From positions 45,113 through 109,112 of the forward strand of contig CAZFQP010000001.1 of NCBI GenBank assembly GCA_964520505.1: a stretch of DNA of 64,000 nucleotides, written 5' to 3'. The stretch's first letter is position 1. Each line of letters opens with the position of its first letter. The translations under genes were made by a program, and so were the position numbers. Below, in pieces: positions 3,761-54,237 of the stretch. The stretch is from an uncultured Candidatus Saccharibacteria bacterium. GTDB taxonomy: Bacteria; Patescibacteriota; Doudnabacteria; UBA920. Below the pieces are notes generated by a model. That model worked only from the letters and a program-made list of their open reading frames with translations, searched no databases and had not been told where the DNA came from.

Positions 3761-4312
3761 ATGAATAATTGGCCAGCTAAAAATAAAATATTCGGCCTTT
3801 TGGTATTATGGCTAGGGTTAATTACCTTGATGTTTTTTAGTTTGTTTGGAATTTTAGACCGCCAAAATCTAGCTAATCTTGAATCTATGGCTCAGCAGAG
3901 AAAAGATCTTGCAATGCTTAAAGCTGAGAGGGAAAGTTTTACCAGAGCTCAACAGGATTTAGATTTATTGGCAAAGAAACAATATCAGCCGGAAGACTTT
4001 TTTTCGAAAGATGTCACTTTGGTTAAAGAGCTTAGAATTTTAGAAGATTGGGCCGACAGGTTGGGAGTAAAAATTCAGATTTCCGGAATAAGTGGAACTA
4101 TTGCTAGTGTGCCCAAGGCCAAAACCCAAACTTCTTTAGCGGTAATTCAGTATGGGATAAGCATTAACGGAGAGTTTAGCCAAGTATTAAATTATATTCA
4201 GGTTTTAGAAAATCTAAGTTTTATTACCAGTATTAGTTCAATGAATTTAAATAATTCGGACAGGGGCAACGTCTCAGCCGGCGTTACCGCCAGTTTATAT
4301 TTAAGGAAATAA
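3761..4312 (+). CDS. pilO: PilO-like pilus assembly protein
   Basis: 183 aa, N-terminal TM, coiled coil, position after pilN. Confidence 0.5.
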   Translation: MNNWPAKNKIFGLLVLWLGLITLMFFSLFGILDRQNLANLESMAQQRKDLAMLKAERESFTRAQQDLDLLAKKQYQPEDFFSKDVTLVKELRILEDWADRLGVKIQISGISGTIASVPKAKTQTSLAVIQYGISINGEFSQVLNYIQVLENLSFITSISSMNLNNSDRGNVSAGVTASLYLRK

Positions 4313-4313
4313 T

Positions 4314-4622
4314 ATGCCCTCTCTCAGCGGAACAAGTCTAATCGCATTAAAAAATAATTTTAATAAGTTGGGTAAAAATTTTTCCTGGCTATTTTACCTT
4401 ATTTTGATTATTGTTTTGGCGTTTGAAGTTATTGAAGTTCAAAAATCGGTTGAAATAATGCTTGAGTCCAAACGCGAGCCGGCAGTGGTGGTTAAAGATA
4501 AAGGAGTAAAAATAAATTTTGACGATTATAATGCGGTAGTAAAAAAAATTGAGAATGGTCAGATCTATCAACCCCCTCAGAATAACGTTAGCAATCCATT
4601 CCAAACGACTATTAGTGAATAA
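4314..4622 (+). CDS. Small membrane protein at the end of the pilus operon (possible PilP-like)
   Basis: 102 aa, one TM; start overlaps the pilO stop (ATATG). Confidence 0.35.
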   Translation: MPSLSGTSLIALKNNFNKLGKNFSWLFYLILIIVLAFEVIEVQKSVEIMLESKREPAVVVKDKGVKINFDDYNAVVKKIENGQIYQPPQNNVSNPFQTTISE

Positions 4623-5099: not shown

Positions 5100-6089
5100 A
5101 TGCTTACATTATTGCTCGGTTTGGATGATTTTTCCAAAAAACAATATATTTCATCCAAGGTGACTGGGCAGAAGATGCCGGAAGATGTGTATTTTGACGT
5201 TGAAAATTTTCCCGGCATAGAAACTTTGGTCGGCGGTGATTTATTTACGGCCGCAAAGCGCCATATTTTTTATTTTATGCCGGAAAATTTTGCCGATCCG
5301 GATACGGTTGAAAAGTTAGTAAGCAGTAAAAACCAAATAATTATTATTATTGAAAAATTAGATAAGCGTTCCGCTGATAATAAAAAATTATTGGCTAATA
5401 AGCACGTTATAGTGGAAGAATTTTTTTTGCCGCACGGACGGGAGTTAGACAATTGGATTGTAAAACGGGCAGGGGAGTTAGGAGCTAAAATTAATACCAA
5501 TTCAGCCAATGCCTTGGCAGTTGCTTTAGGTCGAGATGAAGCGGTGGAAACCAAATTTGGCGGCAAGGTGGTAGAGGTTAAAGAAATTTATTCTTTGTGG
5601 CAAGCCGATGCGGAATTGCGTAAACTGGCAGCTTATACAATTGGTCGGGAAATAAATGTTGAAGATATTGAATTATTGGTTTTTAAAAATGAAAGTTCCG
5701 ATGTTTTTGATTTAACTAATGCGATTGCTGAAGGACAAAAGTATCAAGCCTTATTTTTAATGCATAAATTGCTTGGCCTGCAGACCGGAGCGGAAGAAAA
5801 GACGGCTATTATTCAGTTAAGCGCCTTGCTGGCCGAGCAATTCCGTTCGGTTGCCATGGTTCAAAGTTTCTTGCAAGACCATAAAAATGAAGATGCAATT
5901 TTGGAGTTAACCGGCTGGAAATCCGGTCGACTGTTTATGATGAAAAAAGTGGCGCAAAAGTTTACGCCGGTTAAGGTACTGGATTTTCTTAATAAATTAA
6001 AGGCTTTAGATGAAGAATTAAAATCATCATCAATACCGGCCAAAGTGCTGTTGGATTTAATAGTCTCCCAGTTGTTATCCACAACCTGA
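5100..6089 (+). CDS. holA: DNA polymerase III delta subunit (HolA-like)
   Basis: 329 aa; clamp-loader delta-like N-terminal region and C-terminal helical domain. Moderate similarity only. Confidence 0.5.
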   Translation: MLTLLLGLDDFSKKQYISSKVTGQKMPEDVYFDVENFPGIETLVGGDLFTAAKRHIFYFMPENFADPDTVEKLVSSKNQIIIIIEKLDKRSADNKKLLANKHVIVEEFFLPHGRELDNWIVKRAGELGAKINTNSANALAVALGRDEAVETKFGGKVVEVKEIYSLWQADAELRKLAAYTIGREINVEDIELLVFKNESSDVFDLTNAIAEGQKYQALFLMHKLLGLQTGAEEKTAIIQLSALLAEQFRSVAMVQSFLQDHKNEDAILELTGWKSGRLFMMKKVAQKFTPVKVLDFLNKLKALDEELKSSSIPAKVLLDLIVSQLLSTT

Positions 6090-27326: not shown

Positions 27327-27539
27327 ATGATTAAAACTATTCAGCTGAGAATAAAGGGCATGCACTGCTCCTCCTGCTCTATGAATATAGACGGAGAATT
27401 AGAAGACGCTTCCGGAGTGGTAAAGGCTAATACCAATTACGCCAAAAGCCAGACCGAAATAGAATTTGACCCGGAAAAAATTACCCAGGAAAGAATTAAA
27501 GAGATAATCAAGACTACCGGCTACGAAGTTGAAGAATAA
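27327..27539 (+). CDS. copZ: Copper chaperone CopZ (HMA domain)
   Basis: 70 aa with GMHCSSCS metal-binding motif. Confidence 0.85.
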   Translation: MIKTIQLRIKGMHCSSCSMNIDGELEDASGVVKANTNYAKSQTEIEFDPEKITQERIKEIIKTTGYEVEE

Positions 27540-27544
27540 ATTTG

Positions 27545-27574
27545 CACCTTGGACAAACCAAGGTGTTTAATTTA
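27545..27574 (+). terminator. Rho-independent terminator of the cop operon (CACCTTGG-ACAAA-CCAAGGTG then T-rich tract)
   Basis: 8-bp perfect stem followed by TTTAATTTA. Confidence 0.6.
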
Positions 27575-27585
27575 TAATATCTCCA

Positions 27586-27979
27586 TCATAAGTGCCTAAG
27601 GAGGGCACTGGCATGGGGTAAAATCTGCCGGCGCGCTAAAAGCGCGGTTGACTACTAAAAGACGCCAAGTAACCTACAATGTGTATTTGTTTGAAAGGTT
27701 GCTGCGTCCCACCCGGGCAGTATCGGCCGCTCAGGCGAAAAACAACGTGTGGCACACAGACATTGTGCCAGAGTATGGTCCAAGCAGGATGGATGAGGCC
27801 AAAGTCATCCTCAGGGCTCATATGCACGCTGAACTGGCGGTTATGCAGCCGATCAAAAAACCGGTCGTCCCTGCAACAGCCAGCCATCGTCAACAACTCA
27901 GTTTGTTTCGCCACTAGGTCAGTGGCGCTCGTCATCTGACCGCGGTTTCCAAGTTTGGGAACCGCGGTCGTTTGTTTTG
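27586..27979 (+). ncRNA. Candidate structured RNA or decayed foreign gene remnant: GC-rich (about 52%) segment with own promoter (TTGGAC-18-TATAAT) and strong intrinsic terminator
   Basis: Abrupt GC rise in an AT-rich genome; overlapping stop-free ORFs on both strands; many local hairpins; terminal hairpin GACCGCGGTTTCC-AAGTT-TGGGAACCGCGGTC plus GTTTGTTTTG. No RNase P (no GGAAAGUCC) or tmRNA (no T-loop) signatures. Confidence 0.3.
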
Positions 27980-28038
27980 CCAAAAAGGTGTGAAGATATT
28001 ACAATGAAGTTAAGTGAAAAGTATTTAAATATCAACTT

Positions 28039-28572
28039 ATGATAAATTTATCTTCAAAAAATAAAATTCTGTTATTTGTAGTAATAATAGTGCTGGGAGC
28101 CGGGTTAGTGCGCTTATTTTCCGGGGAGGATGATTGGATTTGCGAAAATGGGCAGTGGCAGGCTCACGGCAGGCCGAGTGCCGCAAAACCTACCACTGGC
28201 TGCGGTCAAGCGGTAAATCAAACCCCGCCTTTGCCGGCAATATTAAATAATACCAACGTTAAGGACTTAAACATTACCATAGACCAGGAAATTGCCAGCC
28301 CGCTGACAATTACGGGACAAATTCGAGGTATATGGTTTTTTGAAGCCAGTTTTCCGGTAATGTTAACCGATTGGGATGGAAAAATTATTGCTCAAGGAAT
28401 TGCCAAGGCCAAGGGTGACTGGATGACAGAAAATTTTGTACCATTTGAAGCGACTTTAACTTTTGTTAAACCCGAGTATAAAAATACCGGCACACTAATT
28501 TTAAAAAAAGACAACCCTTCCAATTTGCCGCAAAACGATGCCGCGATAGAAATCCCAATAAAATTTAAATAA
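28039..28572 (+). CDS. Secreted/anchored hypothetical protein
   Basis: N-terminal TM/signal LLFVVIIVLGAGLVRLF, 177 aa. Confidence 0.45.
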   Translation: MINLSSKNKILLFVVIIVLGAGLVRLFSGEDDWICENGQWQAHGRPSAAKPTTGCGQAVNQTPPLPAILNNTNVKDLNITIDQEIASPLTITGQIRGIWFFEASFPVMLTDWDGKIIAQGIAKAKGDWMTENFVPFEATLTFVKPEYKNTGTLILKKDNPSNLPQNDAAIEIPIKFK

Positions 28573-31541: not shown

Positions 31542-32150
31542 ATGAAAAATATTTTTTTAAAATGGTTATTGGTAATTTACGTTGTCCTGTTTGCAGTTTT
31601 AGCTATTAGCCCGATAGATAGGACAACTTGGTTCGTGGAAAATTTAACAGTGTGGATTATTTTGGGAGCCATATTAATTTTATATGCTAAACAGGTCAGA
31701 TTTTCCAACATGGCTTACGGCCTGATGTTTGTGTTAATTTATTTGCACACCATTGGCGGCCATTATACTTTTGCCCTGGTACCTTTTAGCTGGGTTACCG
31801 ATCTATTCGGTTTTTCCCGCAATCATTTTGACAGGGTTGCCCATTTTTCGGTAGGTTTTTACGCCTTTGGCATAGCAGAGTGGTTATATACCAAGAGTCT
31901 GGTGAAGAGTAAGTTTTTATTATTTACCTACCCTATTTTTGTTATTGCCACCATCGCGATGACTTATGAATTAGTGGAATGGATATACGCGGCCTCTGCT
32001 AACCCGGAAGCCGGTTTGGCATATTTAGGCAGTCAAGGTGACATTTGGGATGCACAGAAAGATATGCTGGCCGACACCCTGGGCGCCATTTTAGCCACAG
32101 TTTTATTTTTCTTTAACCAAAAGTTGTGGGGAAGAAAATTAAATAATTAA
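31542..32150 (+). CDS. DUF2238 (YjdF-like) membrane protein
   Basis: Conserved HTIGGHYTF and HFDRVAHF segments. Confidence 0.5.
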   Translation: MKNIFLKWLLVIYVVLFAVLAISPIDRTTWFVENLTVWIILGAILILYAKQVRFSNMAYGLMFVLIYLHTIGGHYTFALVPFSWVTDLFGFSRNHFDRVAHFSVGFYAFGIAEWLYTKSLVKSKFLLFTYPIFVIATIAMTYELVEWIYAASANPEAGLAYLGSQGDIWDAQKDMLADTLGAILATVLFFFNQKLWGRKLNN

Positions 32151-37539: not shown

Positions 37540-37615
37540 TGGGGCGGCTATCGGGAATTGAACCCGAATTCTCGCTGCCACAGAGCGATGTAATAACCAT
37601 TATACCATAGCCGCC
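37540..37615 (-). tRNA. tRNA-His (anticodon GTG) with encoded G-1 and CCA
   Basis: Minus-strand read: G-1 plus GCGGCTA acceptor pairing with TAGCCGC, discriminator C, CCA; anticodon loop CTGTGGC; T-arm TCGGGTTCAATTCCCGA. Confidence 0.85.
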
Positions 37616-37682: not shown

Positions 37683-39209
37683 GCGGACTGACCACTATAA
37701 TTAAATTAATGGGTCAAAAAAACTCTTACACAGATTTGTAAGAGCCCTATTACTGTCTGCTGTGTCAGACAATAAATTTATTCAATTGCTTATGCTATTA
37801 TAGCTGAAAACAAGGAAGAGGTCAAACTGAAAAACAGCGTAAAAGGAAACCGCGGAACCTTTCGGAACCGCGGTAAAGTAGCTGTTTAAGGCTTTGTCAG
37901 TCTTTATTGATTTCGACTTCGGGAGCTGCGAAAGCGTTCTGTATCGCTTGCCAGAGGTTGCTTCCGCGGCCGGTCTTGGTCATGTACCACATCCACGCCC
38001 TGTGTTCTTTGACACCTTTGGGCTTGGCGATAATGCGCGTACTGCAACAGTTCTCGCCGTTGGGGAATTGTGACGGAGTGGTTTCGAACATGAACCCACG
38101 CCAACCCCATTGAATGGTTTCGCGGCCTTCGGAAGAACGCTTTACCACGTCTTTGGGGTGTTCGAGTTCAGCCAGGCCTTCGAGCTGGAAGACAACTTCT
38201 TCGCCTTCCTGCCAAACGTCAAAGGTGGAGCCGCGACGTACCCAATAGTCAAGGTTACTGGTCGACATCGTGTCGCCCGTGAGATAGTGAGTGTACTTCT
38301 TGCCGTAGACTTCGTTGTACGGACGACCTCCCGCCAAATAATCTTCATCGAGGTGAAGGAGTGCTTCTTCCACGTGCGGATGCTCGCCGTAACCCTTCAA
38401 CTCCTTGTTCAATTCGAGACGCACGACACGCAGACCGCCGCCGGACGAAAAGGCATGCATTCTGCAACCTTCCCGTAGTGCCTGGTGGACACCTGCAAGT
38501 TCGGGTGTTTCCGTAGGCGGGTGCAGATAGGCCTCCTCGCGTTCTTTCTTTTCGCGTTCCGCTACTTCGATAAGTTCGGGAAAAGTCATGTCCTGCGGAC
38601 GCCGATATACAATGACGTCCACTTCTGCGCCGACTCTATTGGTTCCGAACAACATACCCATGTCTTCGCGCTGCTTGTCGGGAGCTTCATACCAGTCGAC
38701 AGCGGTCACCCACATGAGGTAACTGACATCTCCCGGCTTGACCATTTGAAAAACTTCCTTGGAGAACTTAGTGAAAGCTTCGCCCCGTTTCCAAGTCAGT
38801 CGCGCGACAATGCGGTCGTCGTGGTCGACGGCACACACGAACTGCTGACGTGTTCCGCGTCGTCCGTCATTGTGCTTTCCGAGTCGTTCGGTGTAGGCGT
38901 TGTCGCCGTAGTCGATATTGTTCGCCTGCAAATGCATGGCGGTCGTATCCGCGCGCTGCACATGGACGTTCATTACCGGCCACCGCAATTTAGGCTCTTG
39001 CCTGTTCTTCCGCCAACGATACTCGTAGCGAATAACACCCAACGGCGGGAAATTCTCGATAAGCTGTTCCAGCTTAGACTGACGTTTCATTTTGCCTCCT
39101 TGGCATTCCGCCAAAGCATTCTAAACCCGCACATTCCGCACGGGTTGTGTTGATATCAGACAGCACACGCTGCCTAAAATATCCCTGTACTAGCGGACTA
39201 ACTACTATA
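37683..39209. mobile_element. About 1.5-kb GC-rich inserted cassette flanked by 17-bp imperfect direct repeats (GCGGACTGACCACTATA / GCGGACTAACTACTATA, 15/17), adjacent to tRNA-His
   Basis: GC about 55% against a background of about 38%; enteric-like codon usage (CTG, CGT, GGC, ACC); own SD and terminator; direct repeats read from sequence at 37683-37699 and 39193-39209. Confidence 0.45.
37897..39090 (-). CDS. Cargo protein of the GC-rich cassette (397 aa, unknown function); start assigned to the ATG preceded by AAGGAGG (MKRQSKLEQ...)
   Basis: Long stop-free ORF with balanced amino-acid composition. Perfect SD AAGGAGGcaaaATG; downstream hairpin CCGCGGUUCC-GAAA-GGUUCCGCGG plus U-tract. Possible HUH-like order (RVVRLEL..EHPHVEE..VYGKKYTHY), speculative. 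Confidence 0.55.
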   Translation of the reverse strand: MKRQSKLEQLIENFPPLGVIRYEYRWRKNRQEPKLRWPVMNVHVQRADTTAMHLQANNIDYGDNAYTERLGKHNDGRRGTRQQFVCAVDHDDRIVARLTWKRGEAFTKFSKEVFQMVKPGDVSYLMWVTAVDWYEAPDKQREDMGMLFGTNRVGAEVDVIVYRRPQDMTFPELIEVAEREKKEREEAYLHPPTETPELAGVHQALREGCRMHAFSSGGGLRVVRLELNKELKGYGEHPHVEEALLHLDEDYLAGGRPYNEVYGKKYTHYLTGDTMSTSNLDYWVRRGSTFDVWQEGEEVVFQLEGLAELEHPKDVVKRSSEGRETIQWGWRGFMFETTPSQFPNGENCCSTRIIAKPKGVKEHRAWMWYMTKTGRGSNLWQAIQNAFAAPEVEINKD

Positions 39210-52233: not shown

Positions 52234-52308
52234 TGGTGCGCCCGGGTGGAATCGAACCAACATCAATGCCTTAGAAGAGCACTGCTCTATCCATTGAGCT
52301 ACGGGCGC
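52234..52308 (-). tRNA. tRNA-Arg (anticodon TCT), CCA encoded
   Basis: Acceptor GCGCCCG/CGGGCGC, anticodon loop CTTCTAA, T-loop GGTTCGATTCC. Confidence 0.8.
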
Positions 52309-52464: not shown

Positions 52465-52541
52465 TGGTGATCGCGGCAGGAGTCGAACCTGCGACCTTCA
52501 GCTCCGCAAGCTGACGCTCTATCCAACTGAGCTACGCGACC
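52465..52541 (-). tRNA. tRNA-Arg (anticodon read as GCG), CCA encoded
   Basis: Acceptor GGTCGCG/CGCGATC (G-U at pair 2), anticodon stem TCAGC/GCTGA, loop TTGCGGA, T-loop GGTTCGACTCC. Confidence 0.65.
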
Positions 52542-53172: not shown

Positions 53173-54237
53173 TTATTTTTTATCGTGGAATTTTTTATGA
53201 ATGTCACGCAGGCCTTGGTTGGTAATGTGGGTGTAAATTTGCGTGGTGGTAATAGACGCGTGGCCCAGCAGGGTTTGCACAGAACGAATGTCAGCTCCGT
53301 TTTGCAGCAAGTCTGTGGCAAAACTGTGGCGTAAAGTATGTGGGCTAACTTTTTTTATTATTCCTGCTACCCGGCAATATTTTTTTATTATTCTTTGGAT
53401 TTGCCTAACAGTTAGTCCGCTGGCTTTATTGGTGCTATTTTTATCAGCGTTTTTGCCAAAGCCTTGGCTGGCAATTTCTTTTTCAACTTTTTTTTGCTCG
53501 GCTAATATTTTGGCAGCCTTGGAGCCGGCAGATTGTTTGGAGTCAGGGGATACTTGACCGATTTCCGAGTGGCCGACAAACAGCGCTTTGCTGTTATCTT
53601 TTCGTTTAGCCAGATATTTTTTTATGGTTTCGGCTGCTTCATCCGACAAAAACACCAGACGCAGCTTGCTTCCTTTGCCGCGTACGGTGAATTCCCTCCG
53701 GTCGAGGTTAATACTTTCAGTTTTTAAAGAAGCCAATTCGGAAACGCGCAAGCCCGTGGAAAATAGTGTGTGCAAGATTGCTGAATCCCGCAGGCGCAAC
53801 AGTTCGTTTTTTTCTTGGGAAATAGCTGAAAATAATCTTTCCAGTTCTTCCTTTTCCAAAAACTCCACCTGGCGTTGGGGATTTTTGGGCAGTTCAATTT
53901 TTTCAGGAGATAAAGTTTTTACGTCCTGCTTTGCCAGGTATTTTAAAAAGGCGCGAAGGGCTATTAAATGGTAATTTTGGGTAATTAATTTAAGACTATT
54001 GCCCTTGTTGTCGGTAAGTCGGTTGAGAAAGAGCCGATATTTTTTTACGGTTTCTAAGTCTATATTTTTCGGGTCAAAAATGTTTAAAGTTGCCGCAAAG
54101 GCAAGAAACTTATGCAGATAACGGTAATAAGCCGCAATAGTGTTGCGGCTTTGGTTTTTTCCAATCTCACAGTATTCCAAAAACTCAGAGATATAGCGGT
54201 AAAGAGGGGAGTCTATTTTTATTTTAGTTTCCACCAT
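53173..54237 (-). CDS. Tyrosine recombinase (XerC/XerD/phage-integrase family) with an internal roughly 80-aa low-complexity insertion
   Basis: C-terminal catalytic region HTLRHSFATDLLQNGADIRSVQTLLGHASITTTQIYTH (R...HxxR...Y); insert KRKDNSKALFVGHSEIGQVSPDSKQSAGSKAAK...NADKNSTNKASG upstream of it. Confidence 0.8.
   Translation of the reverse strand: MVETKIKIDSPLYRYISEFLEYCEIGKNQSRNTIAAYYRYLHKFLAFAATLNIFDPKNIDLETVKKYRLFLNRLTDNKGNSLKLITQNYHLIALRAFLKYLAKQDVKTLSPEKIELPKNPQRQVEFLEKEELERLFSAISQEKNELLRLRDSAILHTLFSTGLRVSELASLKTESINLDRREFTVRGKGSKLRLVFLSDEAAETIKKYLAKRKDNSKALFVGHSEIGQVSPDSKQSAGSKAAKILAEQKKVEKEIASQGFGKNADKNSTNKASGLTVRQIQRIIKKYCRVAGIIKKVSPHTLRHSFATDLLQNGADIRSVQTLLGHASITTTQIYTHITNQGLRDIHKKFHDKK

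Follow-up and report, generated by a model that had tools for sequence, protein, structure and literature searches.

The GC-rich unit that lies directly 3' of copZ in the stretch of 64,000 nucleotides analysed here (the window) is, with high probability, a monocistronic gene on the + strand that encodes a small protein of about 100 codons. An initial annotation had proposed, from the sequence, that the unit is a novel structured RNA or else a decayed foreign gene. It is an unannotated copy of a rare and unnamed family, without a model in Pfam, NCBIfam or PHROG, and the conservation of this family is at the protein level and not at the RNA level. A false RNA candidate is hereby cleared, the hairpins of the unit being codon coincidences, and a consensus β-clamp-binding motif, preceded by a disordered basic linker, was found in all family members. 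More generally, a GC-rich region that is bounded by a promoter and a terminator and has open reading frames (ORFs) in either direction can prove to be a small, unannotated gene with a broken start.

Layout of the unit and its protein family

The gene immediately 5' of the unit (27327-27539) is copZ, which encodes an HMA-domain protein. A terminator scan placed the intrinsic terminator hairpin of copZ at 27544-27566 (+), in agreement with the initial annotation, and the T-rich tail that follows this hairpin overlaps the next promoter. This sigma-70-like promoter, TGGACA-17-TATAAT (27550-27578, +; -10 hexamer TATAAT at 27573-27578), is the same site that had been described as TTGGAC-18-TATAAT; it displays 11 out of 12 consensus matches and is presumably active. 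Downstream of the promoter lies a leader hairpin, AGTGCCT-AAGGA-GGGCACT (27591-27609, +), of which the loop and the 3' arm present the SD sequence AAGGAGG (27598-27604). The ancestral ATG follows 8 nt past the SD, reads ATG-GGG-TAA as assembled (27613-27621, +), and is displaced by 1 nt relative to the conserved coding frame. That frame (27615-27917, +; GVKSAGALKAR...QQLSLFRH) was recognised on basis of its homologues and their alignment, codon GC content, the pattern of synonymous changes and AlphaFold modelling, and it ends in the stop codon TAG at 27915-27917. The unit is closed by an intrinsic terminator (27937-27980, +), consisting of a hairpin at 27937-27970, with a 15-bp stem and a loop of 4, and the tract GTTTGTTTTG. 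Overall, the element runs from the promoter through a short, SD-displaying leader hairpin and the coding frame (27613/27615-27917, +) to the intrinsic terminator.

The GC content of 27601-28000 is 52.7%, matching the approximately 52% noted earlier, versus about 40% across the window, and gene-caller annotation of the unit is absent. The strong terminator, the ORFs (115 aa, -; 89 aa and 86 aa, +), the four local hairpins, the SD and the mini-ORF reported in the initial annotation were likewise all recovered from the sequence. The 115-aa ORF (27636-27983, -) was rejected as a gene: no homologue was found, its start lies within the terminator, and its codons are the triplets of the + coding frame read in antisense and in phase, which makes it a shadow ORF. 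A minus-strand ORF of equal length in the related loci L020 and L022 was found to encode an unrelated membrane protein.

The frame that holds the 89-aa ORF is open from 27600 and comprises 106 codons up to 27917 (+). Its translation (27600-27914) served as the HMMER query, and a phmmer search against 1.84 billion representatives matched six proteins (P0121-P0126). Protein homologues were thereby found for the + frame 27600-27917. The closest of these, P0121 (104 aa), matched query residues 8-105 at 55% identity (E = 2.3e-21), followed by P0123 (E = 1.8e-13) and P0124 (E = 2.2e-8), as well as by the weaker matches P0125 and P0126. A subsequent profile search retrieved 9 proteins (E from 2e-36 to 2e-3), and Pfam domains were found in none of these nine. 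The remaining phmmer match, P0122 (389 aa), is a repeat protein with an artefact-looking match. It is built from about seven perfect 57-aa tandem repeats (171-nt unit) that match the VWHT...YG region weakly and in multiple stretches; a tiny circular or tandem element may have been assembled here in rolled-out form, or the repeats may match by chance. In total, the family comprises about 10 sequence clusters, all of them hypothetical proteins on Patescibacteria-type contigs, to which the family is so far confined. The named members derive from Parcubacteria/Patescibacteria MAGs, and include one 'hypothetical protein' from a Parcubacteria group bacterium.

The pattern of conservation within the family is that of a coding sequence. 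In the 10-sequence alignment the residues S37, A41, V45, W46, A72, Q94 and L97 are invariant, and the copy in the window keeps all of them. Comparison of this copy with the homologue at locus L024 revealed 53 identical residues, 28 of which are specified by different codons, and other pairs behave alike. Moreover, the GC content at the three codon positions of the frame (0.59/0.44/0.57) is coding-like and resembles that of the other GC-rich gene in the window. The third-position GC content (GC3) is 0.56 for the coding frame in the window and ranges from 0.49 to 0.66 in five intact homologues. Because the GC content of the gene exceeds that of its flanks in all seven loci examined (0.52 versus 0.41 in the window), the foreign look of the unit can be considered a family trait.

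Besides the protein sequence, the anatomy of the gene is shared among the homologues, which are monocistronic, have a promoter-like -10 box just upstream, and start in frame with ATG or TTG at 7-8 nt past the SD. Their ORFs comprise 94-104 codons with a terminator directly 3' of the stop codon; those at L024, L030, L031, L035 and L039 run uninterrupted from SD-start to stop, and three homologues use TTG as their start. A conserved operon partner was sought across the family loci and rejected; a DEAD-box helicase is encoded near the gene in two loci, and possibly in a third, in differing orientations. The leader hairpin that displays AAGGAGG is kept in three members, i.e., in the window (27591-27609), in L024 (~811-828) and in L030 (~5909-5926), where its stems differ (AGTGCCT/GGGCACT, AGCCTC/GGGGCT and CCAGCTCT/GGAGCTGG, respectively). 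These differing stems are a small, genuine piece of RNA covariation, and the hairpin may serve as a small element for translational control or for stabilisation of the mRNA.

Genomic slot and origin of the unit

The window belongs to a contig of Patescibacteria (Parcubacteria/Doudnabacteria-like), and the closest relatives of the Gmad2 protein that flanks the unit are 63-68% identical and originate from such MAGs. Gene order in these relatives is strict (CsoR, CopA, x, DsbD/cupredoxin, CopZ, Gmad2, YgjP-like, DNA_binding_1, pilin, MsrA, SpoU), and their CopZ-Gmad2 interval is either an empty gap of 8 bp or is filled by a DUF2238 gene or by a 145-aa ORF. Because this interval is empty or differently filled in the relatives, the unit is regarded as an insertion in a variable slot. 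The slots compared were 27539-28039 of the window, 9992-10001 of L020, 6493-7104 of L014 and 9558-9995 of L017, and the window encodes DUF2238 3.5 kb further downstream (31542-32150). The L014 contig (JGI Ga0490019_000078, 17397 bp) is a perfect mirror image of itself, with the cop/Gmad2 order inverted around ~8.7 kb, which is very likely a hairpin/foldback assembly artefact.

In 22 related loci, nhmmer detected no homologous element at a syntenic or nearby position, nor was nucleotide or translated similarity to the unit found. The unit as a remnant of the slot fillers of relatives (DUF2238, 145-aa ORF) was rejected, as tblastx gave no match. Candidate phage or plasmid origin was dismissed in the same way, with no blastn match in phage or plasmid collections; a search of IMG/VR gave no relative, and PHROG and BFVD gave no match. 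A role as a defence-system component was discarded for lack of a PADLOC match.

Elsewhere in the window, a 405-aa ORF at 37897-39114 (-), located beside tRNA-His (37540-37614), has a GC content of 54% and a GC3 of 0.62, in a genome of ~40% GC; it has shadow ORFs on the other strand, and its sole Pfam match, DUF7665, is weak (E = 0.026). It looks like a foreign gene that was inserted beside a tRNA gene. The initial annotation had suggested that the terminator core of the unit recurs at 37851-37874, in the terminator of this GC-rich cassette, and that the two share an origin; the similarity amounts to an 11-nt match around the palindrome CCGCGG, which is at chance level (blastn E = 5.6), and a common origin of the unit with this gene and its terminator was therefore abandoned. 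A tyrosine recombinase (53173-54237, -; Phage_integrase E = 2e-42) is encoded beside tRNA-Arg genes at 52234-52308 and 52465-52541, and may, together with this pair, mark one end of an integrated element.

The start codon and rival readings of the unit

The ATG at 27613 that is served by the SD is out of the conserved frame by exactly 1 nt, at the GGGG run at 27615-27618, and the conserved frame resumes as GGG-GTA-AAA from 27615. One extra G yields MGVKSAGALKAR..., of which the residues align with the N-terminus of P0121. In the sequence as assembled, the conserved frame has no start codon that is preceded by a ribosome-binding site; translation in this frame could first begin at TTG 27648, which lacks an SD and would specify an 89-aa product. 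Because this TTG is the sole in-frame start and has no SD, synthesis of a product is not assured. According to the AlphaFold model, the 89-aa form would keep the whole folded core as well as the motif discussed below.

A second family member with a frame defect was encountered at L029 (JGI contig, ~4026-4335), where the reading frame shifts by +1 after the 40 N-terminal codons, at GCGGGTC in mid-gene. Due to this frameshift, the gene caller reported only a 64-aa C-terminal fragment (P0123). The L029 frameshift is independent of the defect in the window and fits a dispensable, decaying gene.

To the possibility that the unit is a young, barely decayed pseudogene we assign slightly less than an even chance. 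According to this reading, a 1-nt deletion occurred just after the start of a foreign small gene, which no longer yields a product and of which the DNA is being lost. In line with this, the SD-ATG is out of frame and meets TAA after two codons, where the intact homologues start in frame, and the TTG is in frame but without an SD. The independent frameshift in L029, the variable slot and the patchy distribution of the family also argue for a dead gene. However, the other 100 codons are open, all invariant and nearly invariant residues are retained, and no further disabling mutations are present. Moreover, the promoter, the leader hairpin and the terminator are intact, and a TTG-started product of 89 aa would retain core and motif. 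If the gene is dead, the lesion must be very recent, because the open frame, the conserved residues and the signals remain. The decayed foreign gene of the initial annotation thus holds in part: the unit is indeed a GC-rich, patchily distributed small gene in a variable slot with its start 1 nt out of frame, but it is hardly decayed, as the frame is otherwise open and every family-invariant residue has been kept.

Alternatively, the copy in the window may still be expressed, through ribosomes that either terminate at the 2-codon mini-ORF and reinitiate at TTG 27648 or slip by -1 on G-GGG; taking both routes together, we regard such expression as possible while leaning against it. Recoding by itself is an improbable route of expression, and we are similarly doubtful of a functional gene that is translated from ATG 27613 and continued by a -1 slip or by a restart at TTG 27648. 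The slippery sequence would be G-GGG; the A site would then hold the UAA stop, and a GC hairpin (~27631-27646) follows within a few bases. On the GGGG run tRNA-Gly can re-pair perfectly in the -1 frame, and the slip would give MGVKSAG..., with residues 3-11 aligning with the P0121 N-terminus. The site combines a stop codon with a strong SD on its 5' side and a hairpin on its 3' side, which are the classic stimulators of frameshifting in prfB and dnaX. Reinitiation, for its part, is consistent with the use of TTG as start in three homologues. These points are opposed by the slippery context, which is not conserved, as the homologues start in frame, by the defect in L029, which is located elsewhere and needs a +1 shift, and, for reinitiation, by the missing SD of TTG 27648. 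We know of no precedent for a slip at the second codon, and because the site is not conserved in homologues, recoding is not supported as a programmed feature.

An error of sequencing or assembly in the GGGG run, the real gene having five G and a normal 101-codon ORF, appears unlikely. One more G indeed puts SD-N8-ATG in frame with the whole conserved ORF, and the lesion lies within a homopolymer. However, an independent Logan assembly of run SRR12487046 is identical in sequence, with the proviso that it may derive from the same reads, and the other genes of the window do not suggest an indel-ridden assembly. Moreover, 4-base homopolymers are seldom miscalled in short reads.

The reading with which the analysis started, i.e., a novel structured non-coding RNA of ~390 nt that extends from the TATAAT promoter to the intrinsic terminator, can be dismissed as highly improbable, because a significant protein match spans one frame (phmmer E = 2.3e-21; profile E down to 2e-36), an outcome that the initial annotation had itself named as refuting an RNA. 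The reading was suggested by the high GC content of the unit within an AT-rich genome, by the presence of a dedicated promoter and terminator, by the lack of a called gene in the unit, and by the predicted folding of the whole unit, with z = -3.5 to -4.3 (+) and -3.4 to -3.7 (-). However, these values are the same on both strands, and when the leader hairpin and the terminator are removed the interior scores z = -1.9 (+) and -1.8 (-), such that there is no strand-specific excess of folding energy beyond the terminator and the many hairpins are not special. Searches of both strands with Rfam 15 gave nothing in the region at gathering thresholds, and at E<=10 only terminator-driven chance matches, for example CssrB with 27 bits versus a gathering score of 76. 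RNase P, tmRNA, SRP, 6S and other Rfam families were accordingly rejected for either strand, and ARAGORN found no tmRNA, which bears out the earlier statement that the unit is none of the common housekeeping RNAs.

In the homologues, conservation is that of a protein with synonymous codon changes, and conserved RNA structure was not found by RNAalifold over the four closest homologous loci (367 columns), where the consensus energy is only -21.9 kcal/mol and the covariation term -1.4. The single internal stem that is kept in these four loci, TGGCAC...GTGCCA, encodes the W-H and V-P of NVWHTDIVP, and is absent in L031, L035 and L039, which have other residues at those positions. In the window, this 'hairpin' TGGCACA-N7-TGTGCCA (27750-27770, +) consists of the codons TGG CAC ACA GAC ATT GTG CCA, specifying W-H-T-D-I-V-P.

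The candidate clamp-binding motif and comparison with known systems

Returning to the reading of the unit as a small protein gene, AlphaFold2 modelling on the family alignment gave a mean pLDDT of 79, with 57 residues at 90 or above. Residues 19-74 (pLDDT >90) are predicted to fold into two β-strands followed by two helices and a further strand, whereas the short basic N-terminus and the Arg/Lys-rich segment 75-100 are predicted to be disordered. In the latter segment pLDDT is ~58-78 and regular structure is absent from the model, except for a 3-residue turn at the motif. The nearest solved fold is that of PaaB (phenylacetate-CoA oxygenase subunit B). A homeodomain-like helix-turn-helix was considered and rejected, as the PDB sequence match to 9lyv is not significant (E = 0.16) and the predicted fold disagrees.

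The C-terminal tail carries QLSLF, encoded at 27894-27908 (+), as a candidate β-sliding-clamp-binding motif, which was recognised from the 10-member alignment and the published consensus. QxxLF or QxxLxF is found in all ten members, in which Q and L are invariant and F is nearly so. The tail variants are QLSLF (window and P0126), QPSLF, QRSLF, QASLF, QLFLF, QLKLF, QAVLF and QPVLF, and the tail of P0125, QRQLAF, fits the hexapeptide form. The bacterial clamp-binding consensus has been described as 'QL[S/D]LF or more generally QxxLF', and PolC carries QLSLF as its conserved motif at the C-terminus (PMC12309361); the same pentapeptide has been used as the full clamp-binding consensus (PMC4549789). 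The motif sits in the predicted flexible tail, as expected of clamp-binding peptides. Because a conserved short motif that ends a variable, disordered tail resembles a docking peptide, the protein is tentatively proposed as a DnaN client of which the tail would dock onto the sliding clamp, in the way that this motif works in PolC, Pol IV and Hda, a proposal that draws on the five-residue motif alone and that we consider a little less probable than its opposite. The window itself contains no dnaN.

A small domain docked on the clamp would be tethered to replication forks or would compete there, and at the clamp it could act by DNA or RNA binding, by competition with polymerases, or by something else. 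A more elaborate scenario, in which a Patescibacteria-specific, horizontally moving protein docks onto DnaN to modulate or block replication, and in which the copy in the window is expressed via a -1 slip or reinitiation along a route that is perhaps controlled by the leader hairpin, is rather unlikely. If the motif works, the family would represent a new clamp client in organisms with a poorly known replication machinery, as a member of an unsurprising class of protein.

Among the known systems with which the unit can be compared, RNase P RNA, tmRNA, 6S, OLE, ROOL/GOLLD and the HEARO/omega RNAs are similar in that the unit, too, is a GC-rich island of ~400 nt that stands out from an AT-rich genome and is delimited by a promoter and a terminator of its own. 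In contrast to these large structured bacterial RNAs, the unit has no covariance-model match or conserved structure, and is conserved at the amino-acid level. The frameshift sites of prfB and dnaX resemble the start region of the unit in that a slippery run adjoins an in-frame stop, with an SD on the 5' side and a hairpin on the 3' side. The site in the unit differs from these in its position at codon 2, in its lack of conservation in homologues, and in the direction of the shift, which is not the same in the window copy and in the second frameshifted member.

Small proteins that dock onto DnaN via a short motif include the SocB toxin of Caulobacter, YabA of Bacillus and phage clamp inhibitors, and the genes for some small clamp binders or inhibitors reside on accessory or mobile DNA. 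The family studied here showed no similarity to these proteins in sequence or fold, and its genes have neither an antitoxin-like or other conserved neighbour nor a PADLOC or PHROG match. PolC, Pol IV, Pol II, Hda and MutS/MutL differ from the protein of the unit in that the latter has no polymerase, ATPase or repair domain; besides the motif it comprises only a core of ~55 residues without detectable relatives, and its binding to DnaN is putative. What the protein has in common with these clamp clients is a flexible linker that leads up to QL[S/D]LF or QxxLF at the very C-terminus, with Q, L and F conserved within the family as they are in the published consensus (PMC12309361).
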